This document shows, one piece after another, positions 3,592 through 10,496 of a stretch of 35,482 bases of DNA. This stretch comes from a virus (Duplodnaviria > Heunggongvirae > Uroviricota > Caudoviricetes > Peduoviridae): the IMG/VR virus record IMGVR_UViG_2529292997_000024, one strand, 5' to 3'. A model generated the notes under the pieces. The model saw nothing but the letters and a program-made list of their open reading frames with translations. It searched no databases and was not told where the DNA came from. Within the stretch, counting starts at the first letter, position 1, and every line of letters begins with the position of its first letter. The translations under genes and the position numbers were made by a program.

Positions 3592-6039
3592 TTAACCGTC
3601 ATGCATCATGCTGGCACGGGCGCGCGCACGTTTATCCCGCTCGTATTTTTCGAGCGCATCCTGTAACTGGCGGTCAAGCTGTGTCCCCGGCGCAGTACCA
3701 CCCGTCAGGCTGATGTGATATTCGTTTTTACTCTGGTCCACATAAGAGCGACCAGCCGGTACCGTGACCGGCTGATAAGCCTGATAGCCTGCATAAGAGC
3801 TGGTCGCCGGAATATAACCACCGGTGCCATACGTGGCGGCATGAGTTCTGGCGGCGGTCTGGTCAAGTGTGTCTGACTCTTTGTTGATAACACCGAGTTT
3901 TTCCAGTACCCAGTCAATGCCGCTGCGCAGTTTGTTGAACGCATTAAGCGGCAGCATCAGCGCGTCAGCCAGTGCCTGCCCGAACATGACGCCCGTATCA
4001 CGGCAACGGTTCAGGGTGTCCTGGGTGGCTTTGACGGGGGCAATCAGGTTTTTAAACCACTGCCACGCGGCCTGTAACTTTTCACCCAGCCAGTCAAACA
4101 CCGGCTTAAGTGGCGCGAACAGTTCCCCCACCGGCGCAAATGCCGCTTTCAGCCCTTCCACCACACCGCCAAAGAATGCGCTGACAGGCTCCCAGTATTT
4201 ACGGATAAGCAACGCCCCGGCGACAATTGCAGCCACCACGGCCACAACCGGCCAGCTAATCGCCCCGATGGCCGTCATAACAGCACTGCCAACCGTCGTG
4301 AAGATTGCCCCCATTGCGCCTGCTGCCGCGATAATGGCATTGATGCCGGTGATAACCGGCCAGGCTACGAGGCCAATGGCACCGATGACACCAGTCAGCG
4401 CCAGTGCACCACCGACAATGATGCCGATGGTTGACGCCAGTGATTTGTTTTTCTGGATCCAGCCGTCGAGTTTTAACACATACTTTGTGGCCGTCTGCGT
4501 GAGATTACGCAGTGCGCCTTCCTGCTGGTCAAACAGGTCAGTCCCCACCGCCTCATAAGCGGACTGAAACTCCTTAAAGTCACCGCCGAGGTTGTCCTGC
4601 ATGATTTTAACCAGCTCTTCCGTTTTACCGTCCGAGGCTTTCAGCGTGGCGGTCAGCTTATCCAGTTTTCCGCTTGCAGCCGCTGCCAGTAAAACGTTCG
4701 CTGATTTCAGGGCTTCCTCACCAAAAATGGTTTTAAGGTATTCCCCCTTCTGAGACGTTCCCAGCTTGTGTTTATCAAAGCTGACCTGAATCTCTTTCAG
4801 AATGGTGAACAACGGACGCATATTTCCCTTTTTGTCCGAGGTTTTAACGCCAAGCTCTTTTAGTGCTTCCCATGCTTTCCCTGTCGGAGCCTGTAATCGG
4901 GTGACAACGGCACTACTACCCGTACCCGCCATTGACCCCCTGATGTTATTGTCATGCAGCACACCTGTCATGGCCGCTGCCTGCTCAAGACTTACACCTG
5001 CCGTCCTCGCAACCGGACCGAGGTAAGTCAGTGCATCACTGAGTCCCTGAAAATCAGCCGCCGACTTATTCATCGTTGCTGACAACACGTCGCCCACATG
5101 GCTGACATCATCATTTGACAGTTGAAAGGATGCCTTAGTCCCCAGCAACAGTTGCGCGTTTTCTTCCATCGACCGCTGATTCGCCAGTGCCATATTCAGC
5201 GTGACCGGCGTTGCCGCCTGAATAGCCGCAGCATCCCCACCCGCTTTCGCGATGATTATCTGTGCACCGGCCGCATCATCCGCCGAGGCGGCGGTATTGT
5301 CGCCGAGCTGGCGCGCCTGTTTGCGTAGTGCGGTCATTTCGGCGGAGTCTTTTGCCACTCCGAGCACGGCCTGCAATTCTGAGTTTTTCTGCGCAAACTC
5401 ATAACCGGGCATCAGCAACTTAACTCCGGCCATCGTTCCCGCCGCCGCAATCCCCACACCGGCAGCGCCTACTGAGGCCATATTTCCGGCCAGTTCCTTT
5501 CCGGCCTGATAACGCTGTTTGACTGCGTTAAGTTTTGCCTGTTGCGCACTGACACGCGCCAGCGCGTCGCGCTGACGGTTAAGCTGTGCGGTGGTTTCAC
5601 TGATACGGTTTTTCAGTCCCTGCTCATCATGTGCAAGATTGCGGGTATTAATTCCCACAGCGGCCAGTTCCCGCTGCTGGCGTTTAACGGAATCCGTCAG
5701 GCGGTTATATTTCGCCTGTAAGTCCTCCGCCGCTCGCTTTGCGGATTCCAGCACTTTCGCCTGAGCACGGGTTGGACGTTCGGTGTTTTTAAACTGTGTG
5801 GCAAGGGCTTCGGCTTCCTGCCGTGCCTTTTCAAGTGCATGACCAGTCACGGCGAGCTGCGCACTGGTCTTGCGAAATCCCTCAATACGGGATGCGTGAC
5901 CGTTCAGCTCGCGCAGTGATTTTTGTGTTTCCCGGATATCCCCCGACAGCGACTTGCTCGCTGTGCGGATGGATTTAAACGGGCGGGATGCCTGGTCAAC
6001 AGCCCTGAGCAATACCTGTAATTTTACATTGTTACTCAT
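3592..6039 (-). CDS. T: Tail tape measure protein T (815 aa)
   Basis: 815 aa with coiled-coil N-terminal region and Gly/Ala-rich hydrophobic central region; length matches P2 gpT. Confidence 0.9.
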   Translation of the reverse strand: MSNNVKLQVLLRAVDQASRPFKSIRTASKSLSGDIRETQKSLRELNGHASRIEGFRKTSAQLAVTGHALEKARQEAEALATQFKNTERPTRAQAKVLESAKRAAEDLQAKYNRLTDSVKRQQRELAAVGINTRNLAHDEQGLKNRISETTAQLNRQRDALARVSAQQAKLNAVKQRYQAGKELAGNMASVGAAGVGIAAAGTMAGVKLLMPGYEFAQKNSELQAVLGVAKDSAEMTALRKQARQLGDNTAASADDAAGAQIIIAKAGGDAAAIQAATPVTLNMALANQRSMEENAQLLLGTKASFQLSNDDVSHVGDVLSATMNKSAADFQGLSDALTYLGPVARTAGVSLEQAAAMTGVLHDNNIRGSMAGTGSSAVVTRLQAPTGKAWEALKELGVKTSDKKGNMRPLFTILKEIQVSFDKHKLGTSQKGEYLKTIFGEEALKSANVLLAAAASGKLDKLTATLKASDGKTEELVKIMQDNLGGDFKEFQSAYEAVGTDLFDQQEGALRNLTQTATKYVLKLDGWIQKNKSLASTIGIIVGGALALTGVIGAIGLVAWPVITGINAIIAAAGAMGAIFTTVGSAVMTAIGAISWPVVAVVAAIVAGALLIRKYWEPVSAFFGGVVEGLKAAFAPVGELFAPLKPVFDWLGEKLQAAWQWFKNLIAPVKATQDTLNRCRDTGVMFGQALADALMLPLNAFNKLRSGIDWVLEKLGVINKESDTLDQTAARTHAATYGTGGYIPATSSYAGYQAYQPVTVPAGRSYVDQSKNEYHISLTGGTAPGTQLDRQLQDALEKYERDKRARARASMMHDG

Positions 6040-6459
6040 TCGTGTTTCCGCTTCGCCGGAGCGCCTTTTCGCGCCATGTGATGAGTTCGGTCAGGCTCAT
6101 GGGATACAGTTCTGATGGCGGCCAGTGAAATATCACTGCCACATCCGCCATCAGGTCATCGACCGAGAGATTTTTCGGAAACGTCACTGCACCGAGTTCG
6201 GCGACAAAAAACCGACCACCTTACCGGCCAGCGCCACAAGGTCAGGCAGTTCCAGCGCGGCGACTTCCTGCTCGGTCAGCATCGGTGCCGTCATGCGCGG
6301 CAGCACTTTAATCAGTGCATCGACTTCGGAGTTCGCGACTGCAGCCAGACTGACACCGCGCAGCGTCCCGGCATTGGGTTTCATCAGCGTGACCTGTTCG
6401 ATAACCTGCTCACCACGTTTGACCGGATTGTCCAGGGTAATGACGTTTTCTTTGTTCAT
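6032..6459 (-). CDS. E+E': Tail assembly chaperone E+E', product of a programmed -1 ribosomal frameshift
   Basis: Minus-strand slippery heptamer GGTTTTTTG (plus-strand caaaaaa about 6205-6211) near the 3' end of E; the -1 frame continues FFVAELGAVTFPKNLSVDDLMADVAVIFHWPPSELYPMSLTELITWREKALRRSGNTNE to TAA at 6034-6032, overlapping the T start. Confidence 0.75.
6184..6459 (-). CDS. E: Tail assembly chaperone E (91 aa, non-frameshifted product)
   Basis: 91-aa ORF between FII and T, as in P2. Confidence 0.85.
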   Translation of the reverse strand: MNKENVITLDNPVKRGEQVIEQVTLMKPNAGTLRGVSLAAVANSEVDALIKVLPRMTAPMLTEQEVAALELPDLVALAGKVVGFLSPNSVQ

Positions 6460-6515
6460 GGTTTTCTCACTTCTGAATCGGGGTTAACCGGTCAGCCAGG
6501 CTGACCGGATGAAAA

Positions 6516-7034
6516 TCACAGGCCGATATTGCGGCGGTGTTGCTCCAGCCGGTCGACGCCGTTCACCTTCTCAATCATGTTGATGGTGTCGATTTCGACC
6601 AGCTCCTTACCGTCCATCGTCAGCCGGAAATAGGTGCAGACCACGGAGATTTTCGACTCGGTGTCTTCTCCCTGTTTGCCCTCGCCGGTGTCGATTTCTT
6701 TCTGACGTCCACGCATGGCCACCTCGACGGCCACCGTTTCGCCGGTATCGTCGCGCTGGTAAGAGCCTGCAAAACGAATCGGTACGGCATCCACACCGGT
6801 TGCGGCGTAAAGCTCCCAGATAACCGAATCCGGGAAGCCACCGAGCGACCACTCCATTGACAGCGCATCGTCATCAAGGCCGAGGTCTACCGGTGCGCTG
6901 CCGTTCATCCCCGCACCGCGATAGTTTTCGAGCTTACGGGTCAGTTTTGGCAGCGTGACGGACTTCGCGACGCCCTGATAGCTGTAGCCGTTCAGAAAGA
7001 CGTTCATTAACTTGAGTTTGCGCGGCATTGCCAT
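6516..7034 (-). CDS. FII: Tail tube protein FII (172 aa)
   Basis: Length and position match P2 gpFII. Confidence 0.9.
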   Translation of the reverse strand: MAMPRKLKLMNVFLNGYSYQGVAKSVTLPKLTRKLENYRGAGMNGSAPVDLGLDDDALSMEWSLGGFPDSVIWELYAATGVDAVPIRFAGSYQRDDTGETVAVEVAMRGRQKEIDTGEGKQGEDTESKISVVCTYFRLTMDGKELVEIDTINMIEKVNGVDRLEQHRRNIGL

Positions 7035-7046
7035 CGGTCAGGCTCC

Positions 7047-8237
7047 TTAATTGCTGTTAACCGAGGTGACCAGATTTGCCAGGTATTTATCGGTAATACG
7101 CTGGCGCAGGGTCAGGTTTTCAAGAGGAGGTACCGGTGTATAGTCGTAGTCGATATACAGTTTTCCGGCCTTGAGGGTTTCCGCATCGTTGGATTCTTCG
7201 CTGAACCAGCAGGTCGCATCCACGATATAGCCGTTTGTTTTCAACTCACGGAATTTGGCATTGATGCCGTCAACGATGTCGCGAATCAGCGTTGCGGTGA
7301 TGGGCTTGTCCACCGCCCACATGTGCGCCTCAGCCATCGTGTCGGCCAGCACCTGCGCGGTGCGGGTGTAGTTTTCAAAGAGGAACAGCGGGTCATCAGA
7401 GCAGGTACGGTTACCCCAGAAGCGGAAACCGTCACGGCGAATCAGCGTTGTGACGCCTGACTCGTTAAGCAGGTCAGCATCGGTGCCGGACTCCTGCAAA
7501 TCCCAGAATACGGACGCGCTGATGCCGGTAACACCGTTCACCCCGACGTTGGACAGCGTTTTATGCCAGCCCTGCTCCTGGTCGATTTTAGCGCGCAGAC
7601 CCAGCGCACGGGCGGTGGCATACGCGGTGGCGGTGGTACTGGTGACCGTATCCCATGCGAGGAAATCCGGCCAGATGACCATCAGCTCACGCTGGCTGAA
7701 ATTCTGGCGGTAGGCTTTCACCTCGGAAATGGTCTTACAGCCCCATGCGCTGATATACCCGAAAGCGCGCAGCTTCTGACAGACCGATGCCAGTGCAACA
7801 GCCACCTCTTTGGTGTCCAGTCCCGGCACGCCGAGAATACGCGGTTTAACACCGGTTACTGACTCCGCCGCCAGCAGGGCTTTCAGTCCGGTGTACTGAC
7901 CGTTTTCGTCGGTGGTGCCGATGATATTGGAAACGGTCTGCGCAAGTTTCGTTTCCTCGTCGTCGCCGGTGCCGTCTTCCACGCGCACAACAACGGTGAC
8001 CGGTTTTGACTGGTCGGCGATGGCCTGCAGCGACGCCGCCAGCGTGCCTTTTTTACCGGCCTTTGCAATTGCGCTCTGCACATTGGTAATCAGCACAGGT
8101 TTATTGAGGGGAAAGGTTTCCGCATCCGCATCGCTGGCCGTGCAGACCATGCCGACAATGGCAGTGGATACGGTGGAAATGACGCGGGTGCCGTCGTTAA
8201 TCTCCAGCACCTGCACGCCGTGATGATAGTCACTCAT
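7047..8237 (-). CDS. FI: Contractile tail sheath protein FI (396 aa)
   Basis: Length and position match P2 gpFI. Confidence 0.9.
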   Translation of the reverse strand: MSDYHHGVQVLEINDGTRVISTVSTAIVGMVCTASDADAETFPLNKPVLITNVQSAIAKAGKKGTLAASLQAIADQSKPVTVVVRVEDGTGDDEETKLAQTVSNIIGTTDENGQYTGLKALLAAESVTGVKPRILGVPGLDTKEVAVALASVCQKLRAFGYISAWGCKTISEVKAYRQNFSQRELMVIWPDFLAWDTVTSTTATAYATARALGLRAKIDQEQGWHKTLSNVGVNGVTGISASVFWDLQESGTDADLLNESGVTTLIRRDGFRFWGNRTCSDDPLFLFENYTRTAQVLADTMAEAHMWAVDKPITATLIRDIVDGINAKFRELKTNGYIVDATCWFSEESNDAETLKAGKLYIDYDYTPVPPLENLTLRQRITDKYLANLVTSVNSN

Positions 8238-8330
8238 CCGTTTAACTCCGTGGTTAATGGGTGCAACTATTTTCTGTTGTGCAGAGCATGAGACGCTATT
8301 TGACCTGGCTGGTCAGGGGATGAAACAACA

Positions 8331-8360
8331 GATAAAGAAAAGGCGGGCAATCAGCCCGCC
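8331..8360 (-). terminator. Rho-independent terminator downstream of the cargo pair, upstream of the FI late operon
   Basis: Stem ggcgggc/gcccgcc (8342-8348 and 8354-8360) with loop aatca; the adjacent A-run on the plus strand is a U-tract on the minus-strand transcript. Confidence 0.6.
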
Positions 8361-8513
8361 TGTCCTGATTTGTATTCACTCATTTTCCGACTGACAATTT
8401 ACATAGCCAAAACGCTATCAAATCTGACAGTCTGCTTGGAGCGAAAAGCGGACGTTGGAAGTTTAAAACTCGCGAACTACTCAGCGTCCATTGATGCGTA
8501 TTGTGTAACGTGA

Positions 8514-9152
8514 TTAACCACAGATGATATTGAAACGTTCTCCGGAAATCTTGACCATAATGTCAGACAGTTCGCTGACGGCATGGGCTTCAGATGATCC
8601 CGGAGCGTCAGGCTGAACAGCTATTACCGAAGCTCCACTTGCCAGCCCTGCTTTTATACCCGCAGATGCATCCTCAAATACCACGCATTCACCAGGCTCA
8701 AGGCCCAAAGCCAAAGCTGCTTTGATGTAACCCTCGGGACTTGGTTTTCCCGTCATTACATCTTCTGCACACACCATTACTATGGGTAAGGGGAGATTAG
8801 CCGCTTTCATCCTGTTTTCGGCAAGCATTCTGCCTGCCGAAGTGACAAGTGCCCAGCTATCCGGTGGCAGTTTTGATAAGAGTGCAGCGGCCCCTTTTAC
8901 TTCAGTAACGCCTTCTGTCGTGTTGATTTCAACCTCTTCGAGTGAGGCCGCGATTTTATTGGTTTTCTCACCTGCACCAATAAAATGCGTCAGTGTATCA
9001 ATCGTTTGCCGCCCGTGTGCGTAAGCAATCACAGCCTGAGTATCAAGACCGTATTCTGCACAAAAATCTCTCCAGACGCTTTCCACTACGGCTGTTGAAT
9101 CAACCAGCGTACCGTCCATATCGAATAAAAAACCCTTAGCGTTGAATATCAT
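8514..9152 (-). CDS. HAD-superfamily (class IA) phosphatase/hydrolase, cargo gene in the Z/fun slot
   Basis: N-terminal HAD motif I FLFDMDGTLVDS, plus a KPSPEG and a C-terminal FEDASAGIKAG motif. Start set at the second ATG (9152), which has an AAGGA Shine-Dalgarno with 6-nt spacing; the ORF track starts at 9158. Confidence 0.7.
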   Translation of the reverse strand: MIFNAKGFLFDMDGTLVDSTAVVESVWRDFCAEYGLDTQAVIAYAHGRQTIDTLTHFIGAGEKTNKIAASLEEVEINTTEGVTEVKGAAALLSKLPPDSWALVTSAGRMLAENRMKAANLPLPIVMVCAEDVMTGKPSPEGYIKAALALGLEPGECVVFEDASAGIKAGLASGASVIAVQPDAPGSSEAHAVSELSDIMVKISGERFNIICG

Positions 9153-9181
9153 TGCCATTCCTTAATGGTTGCAGAAGAAAG

Positions 9182-9820
9182 TTAATCAAACCATGTTTTT
9201 TCATCACCTTTCGCTACTCTCAGGCTGACAGCAATCTGCTCAGGCACAATTCTTGAAAGCGACAATTCAGGCAGGTCGTTGACATCAAAAAAATCAGCAT
9301 CGAGTGACTCATGGCTGATTGACAGGCTGCCACCTACTTCTTCACAGAGAAAAATCAGCTTGTAAACATGCCAGGGTAAAGGCGGATGGCCGTGAAGATT
9401 ACGATCCCAAACTCCCAATAGTTTAGTCACTCTGACTTTTAATCCGGTTTCTTCTTCGACCTCTCGACGCACAGCTTCAGAAGGTGTATCTCCAACATCT
9501 GCCCATCCGCCAGGAAGACTCCATAATCCATCTGCAGCCTCTTTCACCATCAGAATACGATTATTGCGCAGGATAAACGCACGCACATCTGTTTTGGGCG
9601 TCGCGTAACCCGTTTCCGATACATGAAACAAATCATTGCGGCTAATATCAAACTGCGAACTCAGCAGTCCAGCGGCAATTTCACGCAAGGCTTCATAGCG
9701 TTCCTTGTCAAAGACGTCTTTTGAATAGGTCAGGCCTGACTGCGCGAGGGCCTTTAGTCTCTGGGCAACAAAAATAAGCTTTTCTTGGGTCAACACTTCA
9801 GACATGTTTTTCATCTTCAT
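9182..9820 (-). CDS. Nudix hydrolase with an N-terminal extension, cargo gene in the Z/fun slot
   Basis: Nudix box GGWADVGDTPSEAVRREVEEETGL (Gx5Ex7REUxEExGU pattern); lies between G and FI, where P2 carries Z/fun. Confidence 0.7.
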   Translation of the reverse strand: MKMKNMSEVLTQEKLIFVAQRLKALAQSGLTYSKDVFDKERYEALREIAAGLLSSQFDISRNDLFHVSETGYATPKTDVRAFILRNNRILMVKEAADGLWSLPGGWADVGDTPSEAVRREVEEETGLKVRVTKLLGVWDRNLHGHPPLPWHVYKLIFLCEEVGGSLSISHESLDADFFDVNDLPELSLSRIVPEQIAVSLRVAKGDEKTWFD

Positions 9821-9968
9821 TTATGTATTCAGAGTTCCTGTTAAGGATACTGCTCAATTCAATGAAGAATAACAGATGCATCTGGCACCTGCTATGTCCG
9901 CTTCTGGCACAGAGCGGACTGTCAGATTATGCTTTACTCTACGCAATAGATATGTAAGCTCATACAAC

Positions 9969-10496
9969 TTATTGCGGCATTTCCGGCCATTTAGGATTTG
10001 CAGGCTCCACACGACTGACCAGAACGCTGTAGCGTTCCCATGCTTCCAGTCGGCTACGCTCCTCATCTGTTGCCATGTTCAGTCTGACCGCGCGCTCCAG
10101 CGGCAAAATCACGGATTCAGCATCTGCAAGAAGTCTGGCTTTCCGGTTTTCTGCCTGCTGCAGCAATTCCTCTGCCGTATAAATGCGTTTAATCACTTTG
10201 CCGTCCTTAAACATCCAGCCCCCTGAAATGTCCGCCCGTCGGTTAGTAGTAATATCCGCCACTTCAACAACACTTAATCCATCCGGTCTGATAGCTGTCA
10301 CATCCTTTTCCACATAGCGGATAATATTATCTTTGTCGTACGCTATTTTTATCGTGTCATCAGCAAAATACTTTTGTTCTTCGTACCAGTTCTTACCATC
10401 TTCTGAAAAAAACCAGACAACATCAAAGTCCTTTGTCAATTGATATTGTTCAACCGTTTTTGGATTACCCGCCGTAATATTTTTTAAATGCTGCAT
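9969..10496 (-). CDS. G: Tail fibre assembly chaperone G (175 aa)
   Basis: Length and position match P2 gpG, immediately downstream of H. Confidence 0.8.

Follow-up and report, generated by a model that had tools for sequence, protein, structure and literature searches.

A probable mobile Nudix-HAD gene cassette between two 24-bp palindromes in the Z/fun slot of a P2-like prophage

The Z/fun slot of a P2-like prophage, IMG/VR virus record IMGVR_UViG_2529292997_000024, was found to contain a gene for a Nudix hydrolase followed by a gene for a HAD class IA phosphatase, with a 24-bp palindromic site at either end of the pair. The whole stretch of 35,482 nucleotides (nt) that was analyzed is termed the window, and positions refer to it unless another sequence is named. 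On balance, we favor the interpretation that the Z/fun hotspot of this P24C9/10W-type prophage holds the pair as a mobile two-gene cassette of 1.49 kb and that the cassette is probably metabolic, encoding enzymes that act sequentially. The window is the integrated form of a phage that is already sequenced and annotated, being 100% identical over positions 1507 to 25000 to Peduovirus P24C9 (LR595883/NC_049388) and Escherichia phage 10W (OM475433). These records label the two genes 'NUDIX hydrolase' and 'Putative phosphatase YfbT / HAD-superfamily hydrolase', and the pair is an addition to a known class of P2 hotspot cargo. The lead provided by this analysis is the pair of junction sites, termed R and L, which delimit both this cassette and many defense cassettes across unrelated temperate phages.

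Distribution of the gene pair

Two adjacent minus-strand genes had originally been predicted, from the letters of the window alone, between the tail-fiber gene G and the sheath gene FI. This location was borne out by the open reading frames (ORFs), by Pfam matches of the flanking products and by comparison with the reference phage P2, in which the G-FI interval holds fun(Z) and so represents the Z/fun position. The relevant features are as follows.

8430 to 9919, minus strand: whole transferable cassette (R site, Nudix gene, HAD gene, L site), with 99.3 to 99.5% identity over 1490 to 1491 bp to Escherichia coli loci with other flanks
9182 to 9820, minus strand: Nudix gene, an ORF of 212 amino acids (aa) with Pfam Nudix_N and NUDIX domains, assigned to the CDP-Chase/UDP-X diphosphatase subfamily
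8514 to 9158, minus strand: HAD class IA phosphatase gene, an ORF of 214 aa matching HAD_2 and TIGR01509, assigned as a YfbT/HxpA paralog
9969 to 10496, minus strand: tail-fiber assembly gene G, the upstream boundary of the slot (Caudo_TAP, E value of 4.7e-33)
7047 to 8237, minus strand: tail sheath gene FI, the downstream boundary of the slot (Phage_sheath_1, Phage_sheath_1C and Gp18_domIII_N)

The Nudix and HAD genes are separated by 23 nt, a gap that fits co-transcription, and the two are probably co-transcribed.

Segment 8429/8430-9919 was present at 99.3 to 99.5% identity in 19 of 5426 complete E. coli genomes, with unrelated flanks, and the Nudix-HAD pair occupied the P2 slot in none of them (0/5426). 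Copies were located in a lambdoid slot between the DUF977 replication module and hokD/rem of Rac/Qin-like prophages whose replication genes vary (the hokD-DUF977 slot; our loci L002 and L095 to L099), at the tail-fiber end of another lambdoid prophage (L001), and in an integrase island in which the HAD gene is truncated and the Nudix gene intact (L100, NZ_CP024245, 3552-3989). A further 13 viral contigs with the cassette were detected in IMG/VR, one of them showing yet another type of flank. The pair was co-directional with the flanking genes in all contexts examined by annotation, and the GC content of the cassette was 46.4%, as opposed to 51.6% for the window. Other copies were more divergent: that of locus L089, at 85% nucleotide identity and 84 to 89% aa identity for the proteins, has a chromosome-like context, and those of L087 and L088 (80% aa identity for the Nudix protein and 71% for the HAD protein) adjoin integrases.

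The classification of the pair as accessory cargo of a variable locus, also part of the original prediction, was upheld by these searches. Moron cargo of the Z/fun hotspot is marked by a G-FI location, by presence in some and absence from other near-identical phages and by foreign composition, and the pair fits all three. Most P2-like phages match the window in the flanks only (67 of the 70 phage records that match the interval) and carry other cargo between them, and among 50,697 phage records only P24C9 and 10W have the pair. Apart from its position among tail genes, there was no indication that the pair is a conserved structural or assembly accessory of P2, the outcome that had been named as refuting a cargo role. 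The distribution of the cassette rules this reading out, given the variable cargo of P2-like phages, the absence of the pair from the P2 slot of the E. coli genomes, its behavior as one unit both in lambdoid prophages and in the integrase island, and the existence of homologs that are chromosomal enzymes in many phyla.

Two further observations were made on the related phage sequences. The match to P24C9/10W starts at 1507, and positions 1 to 1506 are presumably host chromosome or attachment junction. Escherichia phage 11W (L183, OM475429) has a scrambled form of the cassette at 793-2181, with 70 to 89% identity, many indels and only the L site recognizable, in a backbone that is 99.8% identical; this copy is a probable sequence-quality artifact of a record described as a 'partial genome' rather than a product of decay.

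Palindromic sites at the cassette junctions

The ends of the cassette coincide with the following features, none of which was assigned a strand.

9896 to 9919: R junction site, a 24-bp 9-6-9 palindrome, GTCCGCTTC TGGCAC AGAGCGGAC
8430 to 8453: L junction site, a 24-bp 9-6-9 palindrome, GTCTGCTTG GAGCGA AAAGCGGAC
8421 to 8429: P2-backbone half of a longer inverted repeat, AATCTGACA, pairing with 9920-9928
9920 to 9928: P2-backbone half of the same repeat, TGTCAGATT

The arms of R and L share the consensus GTCCGCTTT/AAAGCGGAC, while the spacers differ (TGGCAC versus GAGCGA). The longer inverted repeat extends over 42 nt (8421-8462 with 9887-9928). Its backbone flanks are also present in P2 and P2-EC67, and the P2-EC67 record annotates a 'left/right inverted repeat' there.

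Comparison of five cassette contexts revealed that, on both sides, the inner arm and the spacer were constant and the outer arm varied with the host element. The converse was observed for a lambdoid slot with DUF4209 cargo, which keeps the outer arms and has different inner arms. By these comparisons, the breakpoints lie inside the palindromes on both sides. In the E. coli lambdoid prophages L101 and L102, the DUF4209 cargo occupies the hokD-DUF977 slot with the same outer arms and spacers; its gene, for a 595-aa protein, has the opposite orientation and in L101 carries an IS1203 insertion. A fused-flank query for joined flanks of the lambdoid slot, indicative of an empty site, found them in no genome; the slot instead holds other cargo such as DUF4209.

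An exact scan of IMG/VR with the R pattern identified 79 contigs with more than 10 different outer flanks. Within 842 kb of these R-selected contigs, a census was taken of the spacers of every 24-mer having both arms at two or fewer mismatches from the consensus. The TGGCAC spacer was detected 85 times, as selected by the scan, GAGCGA was detected 40 times without having been selected, and all other spacers together accounted for 5 sites; ∼1.5 sites of any spacer were expected by chance. As calculated from 61 distinct R contexts and 35 distinct L contexts, each position within the 24 bp had an information content of ∼2 bits, compared to 0.1 to 0.4 bits for positions outside. The value inside the sites is partly set by site selection, and the sharp edges are the informative part. 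One extra base was conserved on the cargo side of each R and L site. Also on the cargo side of R, a motif present in the window at 9869-9895 (GTGCCAGA; minus strand, CTGTGCCAGAAGCGGACATAGCAGGTGCCAGATGCATCTG) was seen to recur, and a terminator scan flagged it as a weak AT-rich hairpin.

The classical cargo of P2 is bounded in the same way. In P2 (L182, NC_001895), sites at 336-359 and 2433-2456 (R, GTCCACTCT GTGCCA AAAGCGGAC; L, TTCCGCTTC TCGCTC AAAGGAAAC) enclose the fun(Z) region, whose ∼2.07 kb contain the annotated V-operon terminator. These boundaries place the classical Z/fun cargo among the R/L-bounded cassettes; around ORF1 of P2-EC67 the palindromes are present in a degenerate form. 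In total, 36 R...L pairs were found to hold 16 types of cargo, and at least 16 unrelated types are bounded by the two sites in P2-like and lambdoid phages.

Locus L089, in its chromosome-like context, has an R site upstream of a GGACT-Nudix-HAD unit and an L site downstream, and an L site followed after 9 to 18 nt by an R site was present in four loci (L089, 6700-6765; L121, 1795-1858; L155, 12601-12666; L161, 606-671). These tandem sites look as if one cassette had ended and the next begun, in an integron-like arrangement. In the L089 tandem, the intervening bases lengthen the palindrome (GCTGAC TTTCAGAAT GTCAGC). The additional gene of L089, encoding a GGACT (gamma-glutamyl cyclotransferase-like) protein, is fused upstream of Nudix-HAD inside the R...L boundaries (4875-6723), and a GGACT gene alone forms a 548-bp cassette in L140. 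In the Qin prophage of K-12 (L184), ydfV-flxA lies between a degenerate R site at 5982-6005 (GTCCGCTTT GTGCCA GGAGCAGCC) and an L-like site at 6973-6996 with the spacer TTGCTC; relative to hokD, this unit is inverted in comparison to the slot holding Nudix-HAD, and relBE is located between hokD and the unit.

Strand exchange inside the spacers of core-type recombination sites would leave a junction pattern such as this one, and two sites with different spacers would give oriented exchange of whole cassettes. We tentatively suggest, as a possibility with less in its favor than the metabolic cassette itself, that the pair is one cargo of a cassette-exchange system with heterospecific 24-bp sites, a dedicated putative recombinase and paired crossovers in the spacers, operating across P2-like phages, lambdoid phages and some chromosomal arrays. 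No recombinase linked to the R and L sites was found. The site pattern could also have been produced by Red- or RecET-type recombination acting on the ∼24 bp of homology, or by hairpins that are conserved because they function in RNA, recombination being a side effect. A scan of 8200-10050 against Rfam yielded no RNA family at an E value of ≤1, indicating that the palindromes are not a described RNA element.

Similarities to known cassette systems were evident. Integron attC cassettes and the pdif modules of Acinetobacter share with the R/L cassettes a promoter-poor cargo, short imperfect palindromes, many cargoes per type of boundary, tandem arrays (L-R in the present case) and crossovers that map inside the sites. 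Engineered cassette exchange with heterospecific lox or FRT sites shares the combination of identical arms with different 6-bp spacers. The R and L sites differ from integron and pdif sites in having no GTTRRRY core, no XerC/D-like arms and no linked integrase or recombinase. An integron is defined by attC sites with R''/R' core boxes (RYYYAAC ... GTTRRRY) and an IntI platform; no integron integrase was located next to the cassette copies examined, and classification as an integron gene cassette was rejected, as the 24-bp palindromes with their GTCCGCTTT/AAAGCGGAC arms lack the GTTRRRY core.

Inverted repeats at the P2 locus were already annotated in GenBank records of 2004; hence, these repeats had been seen before, and the present result adds to that earlier observation. 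The P2 repeats are said to have been first described by Nilsson et al. in 2004. A literature search, which left out that article, found no paper giving the 24-bp junction sequences, and the R/L repeats are not mentioned in recent hotspot surveys.

Properties and proposed roles of the two enzymes

The Nudix call of the original prediction, a Nudix box with an N-terminal extension, was confirmed. ORF 9182-9820 encodes the box GGWADVGDTPSEAVRREVEEETGL, and the extension corresponds to a Nudix_N domain (PF12535, residues 14-61, 64 bits) that precedes a NUDIX domain (PF00293, residues 77-184, 68.4 bits versus a cut-off of 21.1), both above their cut-offs. The protein thus shows both defining features of the superfamily, the box Gx5Ex7REUxEExGU and a Pfam NUDIX score that passes the gathering threshold. 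Its version of the box is G105-WADVG-D-TPSEAVR-REVEEETGL, D replacing the first E at a position that is Y in CDP-Chase. Translation probably starts at the methionine of MSEVL near 9805, the third ATG, giving a protein of 207 aa as in homologs.

The subfamily of CDP-Chase and UDP-X diphosphatase (UDP-Xase) has been defined by a helix-loop-helix (HLH) motif, GUXXarX2DXXarDX[E/D]RXar, a hinge YXTP, a C-terminal LPXLS, a length of 200 to 210 aa and the Nudix signature GXarXsm[E/D]UX2[S/T]X2EX3KEUXEEXGU (PMC3655063). In the window protein, the HLH motif is GLTYSKDVFDKERY (residues 29-42), with the G, D, D, E, R and Y positions invariant among 11 homologs; the hinge is YATP (72-75) and the C-terminal motif is LPELS (183-187), both conforming to the subfamily patterns; and GWADVGDTPSEAVRREVEEETGL agrees with the Nudix signature apart from R replacing K. 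The best solved relatives were Bacillus cereus CDP-Chase (3Q1P, E value of 7e-50), a Streptococcus suis protein (3O8S) and the UDP-X diphosphatase of Streptococcus pneumoniae (4HFQ). An AlphaFold2 model contained helices at 12-29, 36-57 and 61-64 followed by a confident Nudix fold, the N-terminal domain having low pLDDT as a monomer, and the top Foldseek matches of this model (6NCI, 3Q4I, 3Q1P and 4HFQ) aligned over 205 to 209 columns. Like CDP-Chase (3Q1P/3Q4I/6NCH) and SP_1669 (4HFQ), the window protein has three N-terminal helices and a Nudix domain in 200 to 212 aa with four subfamily motifs; identity to 3Q1P, as judged from the printed alignment, is ∼50%, with a full-length match of the folds.

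Profile classification of the Nudix subfamily and its N-terminal domain had been proposed as a check on the original prediction, which had listed ADP-ribose (ADPR) immune signals and NAD-cap metabolism as candidate roles. By its motifs and profiles, the protein is a member of the CDP-Chase/UDP-X diphosphatase subfamily and not an ADP-ribose or NAD pyrophosphatase, and the ADP-ribose, NAD-cap and immune-signal proposals gained no specific support. Scores with NCBIfam models were far below the cut-offs for NudC (NF001299, 27.9 versus 158 bits), NudE (NF008736, 19 versus 169 bits), RppH (17 to 24 versus 116 to 259 bits) and MutT, and a NudF model was not among the matches. ADP-ribose pyrophosphatases are reportedly marked, in the account of Dunn et al. 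of 1999, by a Pro ∼15 to 16 residues past the Nudix box and NudC proteins by SQPWPFPxS. In the window protein, N, L and H follow the box at +14 to +16, and no SQPWPFPxS motif was found. The names 'YjhB' and '3O8S ADP-ribose pyrophosphatase' were rejected as structural-genomics or automatic labels, the screened enzyme having no such preference.

Members of the subfamily have been described as asymmetric homodimers whose two active sites are distinct; CDP-Chase hydrolyzes CDP-choline, UDP-Xase hydrolyzes UDP-N-acetylmuramic acid (UDP-MurNAc), with or without Ala, and UDP-glucose with a kcat/Km of ≤2900 M-1 s-1, and both enzymes are also reported to be 3'→5' RNA exonucleases (PMC3655063). A screen of the S. 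suis member with 74 compounds detected weak activity on dinucleoside polyphosphates only, for example Ap5U, and the authors stated that the true substrate had not been found; the compounds named in that paper include ADP-ribose and cyclic ADP-ribose (cADPR). In 2013 the subfamily was described as restricted to Gram-positive bacteria (PMC3655063). We found 5366 homologs of the window protein, many of them in Enterobacterales (60 to 74% identity) and others in cyanobacteria, Bacteroidota and Planctomycetota, indicating that the Gram-positive-only range is an outdated description and no bar to membership. The window protein differs from CDP-Chase and UDP-Xase in its Gram-negative host and phages, in the R for K in the signature and in HAD pairing, which is confined to its clade. 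Nudix proteins of this type were present in 9 of 50,697 phage records.

The other protein call, a HAD class IA enzyme with FDMDGTLVDS, was likewise correct. The product of ORF 8514-9158 begins MAMIFNAKGFLFDMDGTLVDS and contains this motif; the probable start is at 9152, the second ATG, with AAGGA six nt upstream, giving 212 aa as NCBI annotates. Pfam matches were to HAD_2 (79 bits) and also to Hydrolase, and the class IA models TIGR01509 (HAD-SF-IA-v3, 59.8 versus 29.4 bits) and TIGR01549 (27.1 versus 23.3 bits) were exceeded. The four catalytic motifs of the superfamily, DxDGT, S/T, K and E/D-D, are intact (DMDGT, 13-17; TS, 106-107; GKPSPEGY with K138; FEDASAG with ED at 161-162), as they are in YfbT/HxpA and in yeast glycerol-3-phosphatase Gpp1 (2QLT, E value of 2e-22), which share the class IA fold and of which the latter is the best solved relative. 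The best NCBIfam model was PRK11587 (YfbT), matched at full length with an E value of 1.6e-56. As its score of 191.1 bits is under the equivalog cut-off of 282, the protein is classed as a paralog of the sugar/polyol phosphatase YfbT/HxpA and not HxpA itself. HxpA-like enzymes favor primary-alcohol phosphates, such as polyol phosphates, ribose-5-phosphate and glycerol-3-phosphate. We infer that such a preference fits substrates of the nucleoside diphosphate (NDP)-polyol or ADP-ribose type better than sugar-1-phosphates.

The following sequence of events would account for these data. The pair may have arisen in an enterobacterial lineage, in which a GGACT-Nudix-HAD unit bearing these end sites is found in chromosome-like surroundings. 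Phages would have captured it by recombination at the end sites, and the cassette has moved nearly unchanged among P2-like and lambdoid prophages and the integrase island. The Nudix enzyme would split a nucleoside-diphosphate-linked alcohol or sugar (NDP-X) into nucleoside monophosphate and phospho-X, from which the HAD enzyme would remove the phosphate to give X and phosphate, the net effect being to drain or detoxify a nucleotide-activated small molecule. Whatever weak expression may occur in the lysogen, the pair would be transcribed by read-through of phage lytic transcripts, which in P2 would be those of the V-G late operon.

Several findings weigh against a sequential pathway of this type. 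No member of the Nudix subfamily has a known substrate at physiological efficiency. A HAD homolog was located within 6 kb in only 1 of 80 Nudix_N loci from other species, and no neighbor family was shared by more than 10 of the 80 loci or was regularly adjacent. HAD relatives with 61 to 69% identity have no Nudix neighbor, such a neighbor being seen only above ∼70%, and a Nudix relative with 84% identity stands without a HAD partner. Some E. coli (H50 to H52) have a truncated HAD gene beside an intact Nudix gene or the HAD half only (H52). The pathway originally predicted, a Nudix pyrophosphatase followed by a phosphatase, is hence chemically plausible, but the adjacency is absent in 79 of the 80 other species and each gene persists alone in some E. 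coli. With adjacency limited to close relatives and one other species, the Nudix-HAD pairing is young. The HAD-truncated and HAD-only copies indicate that the two genes are not strictly co-dependent. Gene neighborhood was rejected as a functional clue, as it gave no hint and speaks against an ancient Nudix-HAD pathway.

These same findings, a pairing absent outside one narrow clade and the existence of HAD-truncated and HAD-only copies, are what would be expected if two unrelated house-cleaning enzymes were travelling together as a near-neutral hitchhiker, kept because the hotspot is never empty. Both families are classic promiscuous house-cleaning enzymes, and P2 hotspots have been reported never to be empty (PMC13586616). 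We consider this explanation unlikely in view of the sequence evolution of the pair. The dN/dS ratio was 0.09 to 0.10 for the Nudix gene and 0.10 to 0.16 for the HAD gene, so that by this measure both genes are under strong purifying selection. Relative to L089, dS was ∼0.5 for both genes, and the pair had co-diverged across three lineages with dS up to saturation. The spacing of the genes was kept at 23 to 26 nt, and the >99% identity of copies from at least five contexts points to spread that was recent and repeated, not to drift. Given purifying selection and recent spread through several types of prophage, the cassette probably does something useful.

The expression of the pair was examined by scanning for signals. 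The original prediction had assigned the pair a hairpin/U-tract terminator of its own at 8331-8360, which was not sustained, as the hairpin lies outside the cassette in a backbone common to P2-like phages.

8341 to 8361, minus strand: P2-backbone intrinsic terminator (hairpin and T-run), separating the cargo slot from the region of the F-operon promoter

The hairpin (8361-8341), the only strong terminator detected, has a ΔG of −20.7 kcal/mol (z of −5.45, with 0 of 200 shuffles as good) and is part of a block, 8201-8457, that is conserved in P2 and P2-like phages whatever the cargo and lies just upstream of the F-operon promoter. This predicted terminator is a backbone element that would shield the F operon from transcription across the slot. 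No sigma-70-like promoter was detected in 8200-10050 by a simple consensus scan, which can miss real promoters; this leaves expression in the lysogen possible and is a further point against the favored interpretation. The lack of a detected promoter, together with the sense orientation, suggests that transcription of the pair comes mainly from phage lytic transcripts extending into it. P2 fun(Z) differs in being antisense and downstream of the V-operon terminator inside its own cargo region. A TATCCT hexamer resembling a −10 element, without a −35 element, was seen by eye to be common to the cassette and L089 and was not called as a promoter.

Defense roles and the biology of phage hotspots

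The Z/fun locus is a recognized second defense hotspot of P2-like phages (PMC9519451), and the cargo of P2 fun(Z), P2-EC67 ORF1 and the PD-T4/PD-T7 systems (Vassallo et al. 2022) occupies the same G-FI slot. The R and L sites were found to bound genes encoding a PD-T7-1-like protein (E value of 3.8e-83), an NsnA/GmrSD_N-like protein (2e-56), a type III-A retron reverse transcriptase (7e-170) with a probable phosphoribosyltransferase partner, and SIR2-like and RelA/SpoT-like proteins. The frequency of defense cargo in neighboring slots of this type counts against a purely metabolic interpretation and keeps a defense role open. Metabolic or regulatory cargo was also present between R/L sites, namely, glyoxalase, GGACT and a helix-turn-helix (HTH) plus GNAT pair. 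The present cassette differs from the other Z/fun cargo in encoding two small-molecule hydrolases without known defense homology. In PADLOC-DB v2, the HAD protein had no match and the Nudix protein matched only candidate PDC-S07, over the Nudix domain alone (E value of 6.6e-10), and in PHROGs only 'unknown function' and 'HAD hydrolase' families were matched.

The original prediction had raised defense by nucleotide depletion, and no defense family was matched beyond this weak, generic PDC-S07 match. A pair expressed in the lysogen might destroy a nucleotide-activated metabolite, such as UDP-glucose, a CDP- or ADP-linked sugar or a dNTP-like compound, that an incoming phage requires for itself or for its receptor, leading to superinfection exclusion or abortive infection. 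The hotspot location, the presence of PD-T7-1-like, NsnA/GmrSD-like, retron III-A and SIR2-like genes in cassettes with these two sites, the match to PDC-S07 and the in vitro hydrolysis of UDP-glucose and UDP-MurNAc by UDP-Xase (PMC3655063) are consistent with such a role. We nevertheless regard it as rather unlikely: the pair lacks a sensor and a regulatory part, and a constitutive drain would carry a cost, the missing sigma-70 promoter and the orientation suggest lytic read-through rather than lysogenic expression, homologs in 80 species are solitary without conserved neighbors, and the site-bounded slots also carry plainly metabolic genes.

Counter-defense during lytic growth, in which the pair would degrade a host immune nucleotide or its precursor and so protect the carrier phage, was judged improbable. 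ADPR-derived signals, dinucleoside polyphosphates, alarmones and NAD-capped RNA would be the candidates. In favor of this reading, YfbT acts on ribose-5-phosphate, and a YfbT-like phosphatase could remove ribose-5-phosphate. The co-directionality of the pair with lytic operons in every context and the lack of a detected promoter also fit, as do the weak dinucleoside-polyphosphate activity of the S. suis enzyme and the proposal (PMC9503650) that soluble derivatives of ADPR are targets of the Nudix, Macro and NADAR domains of phages. The chromosomal homologs are, however, widespread and housekeeping-like, and the Nudix protein is far below the NudC, NudE and RppH cut-offs. The 74-compound S. suis screen gave nothing strong, with ADP-ribose and cADPR among the compounds named. 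Nudix proteins have been reported in ∼0.25% of small phages (PMC9503650). Like T4 NudE and NadM-Nudix, the window protein is phage encoded with a Nudix fold, but it is outside the clades of these two proteins, which dominate phage Nudix, and its type is rare among phage records. Literature on NARP3 and other NAD pathways proved irrelevant.

A defense or counter-defense role is possible at a hotspot of this kind, without specific support; cargo that serves metabolism or adjusts a pool is the likelier reading, ahead of an immune system of the sensor-effector type. The further layer that could be placed on cassette exchange, in which the pair itself is a new nucleotide-metabolite-degrading module for defense or counter-defense, is less likely.

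In itself, the pair is a modest finding, an unusual cargo, not defense-like in appearance, in a known P2 hotspot, and one that extends the CDP-Chase/UDP-Xase subfamily of Nudix proteins to Gram-negative bacteria and their phages. The larger point concerns packaging: this cassette, fun(Z) and at least 15 other types of cargo end at two sharply bounded palindromes common to unrelated phage backbones. The latest survey of P2/P4 hotspots concluded that the recombination swapping defense systems "still need to be elucidated", having weighed transposons and homologous and illegitimate recombination (PMC13586616). The R and L sites make the question of cargo swapping experimentally tractable, and cassette exchange at these sites, if true, would explain how defense genes are swapped rapidly at phage hotspots, for which a mechanism has been missing.

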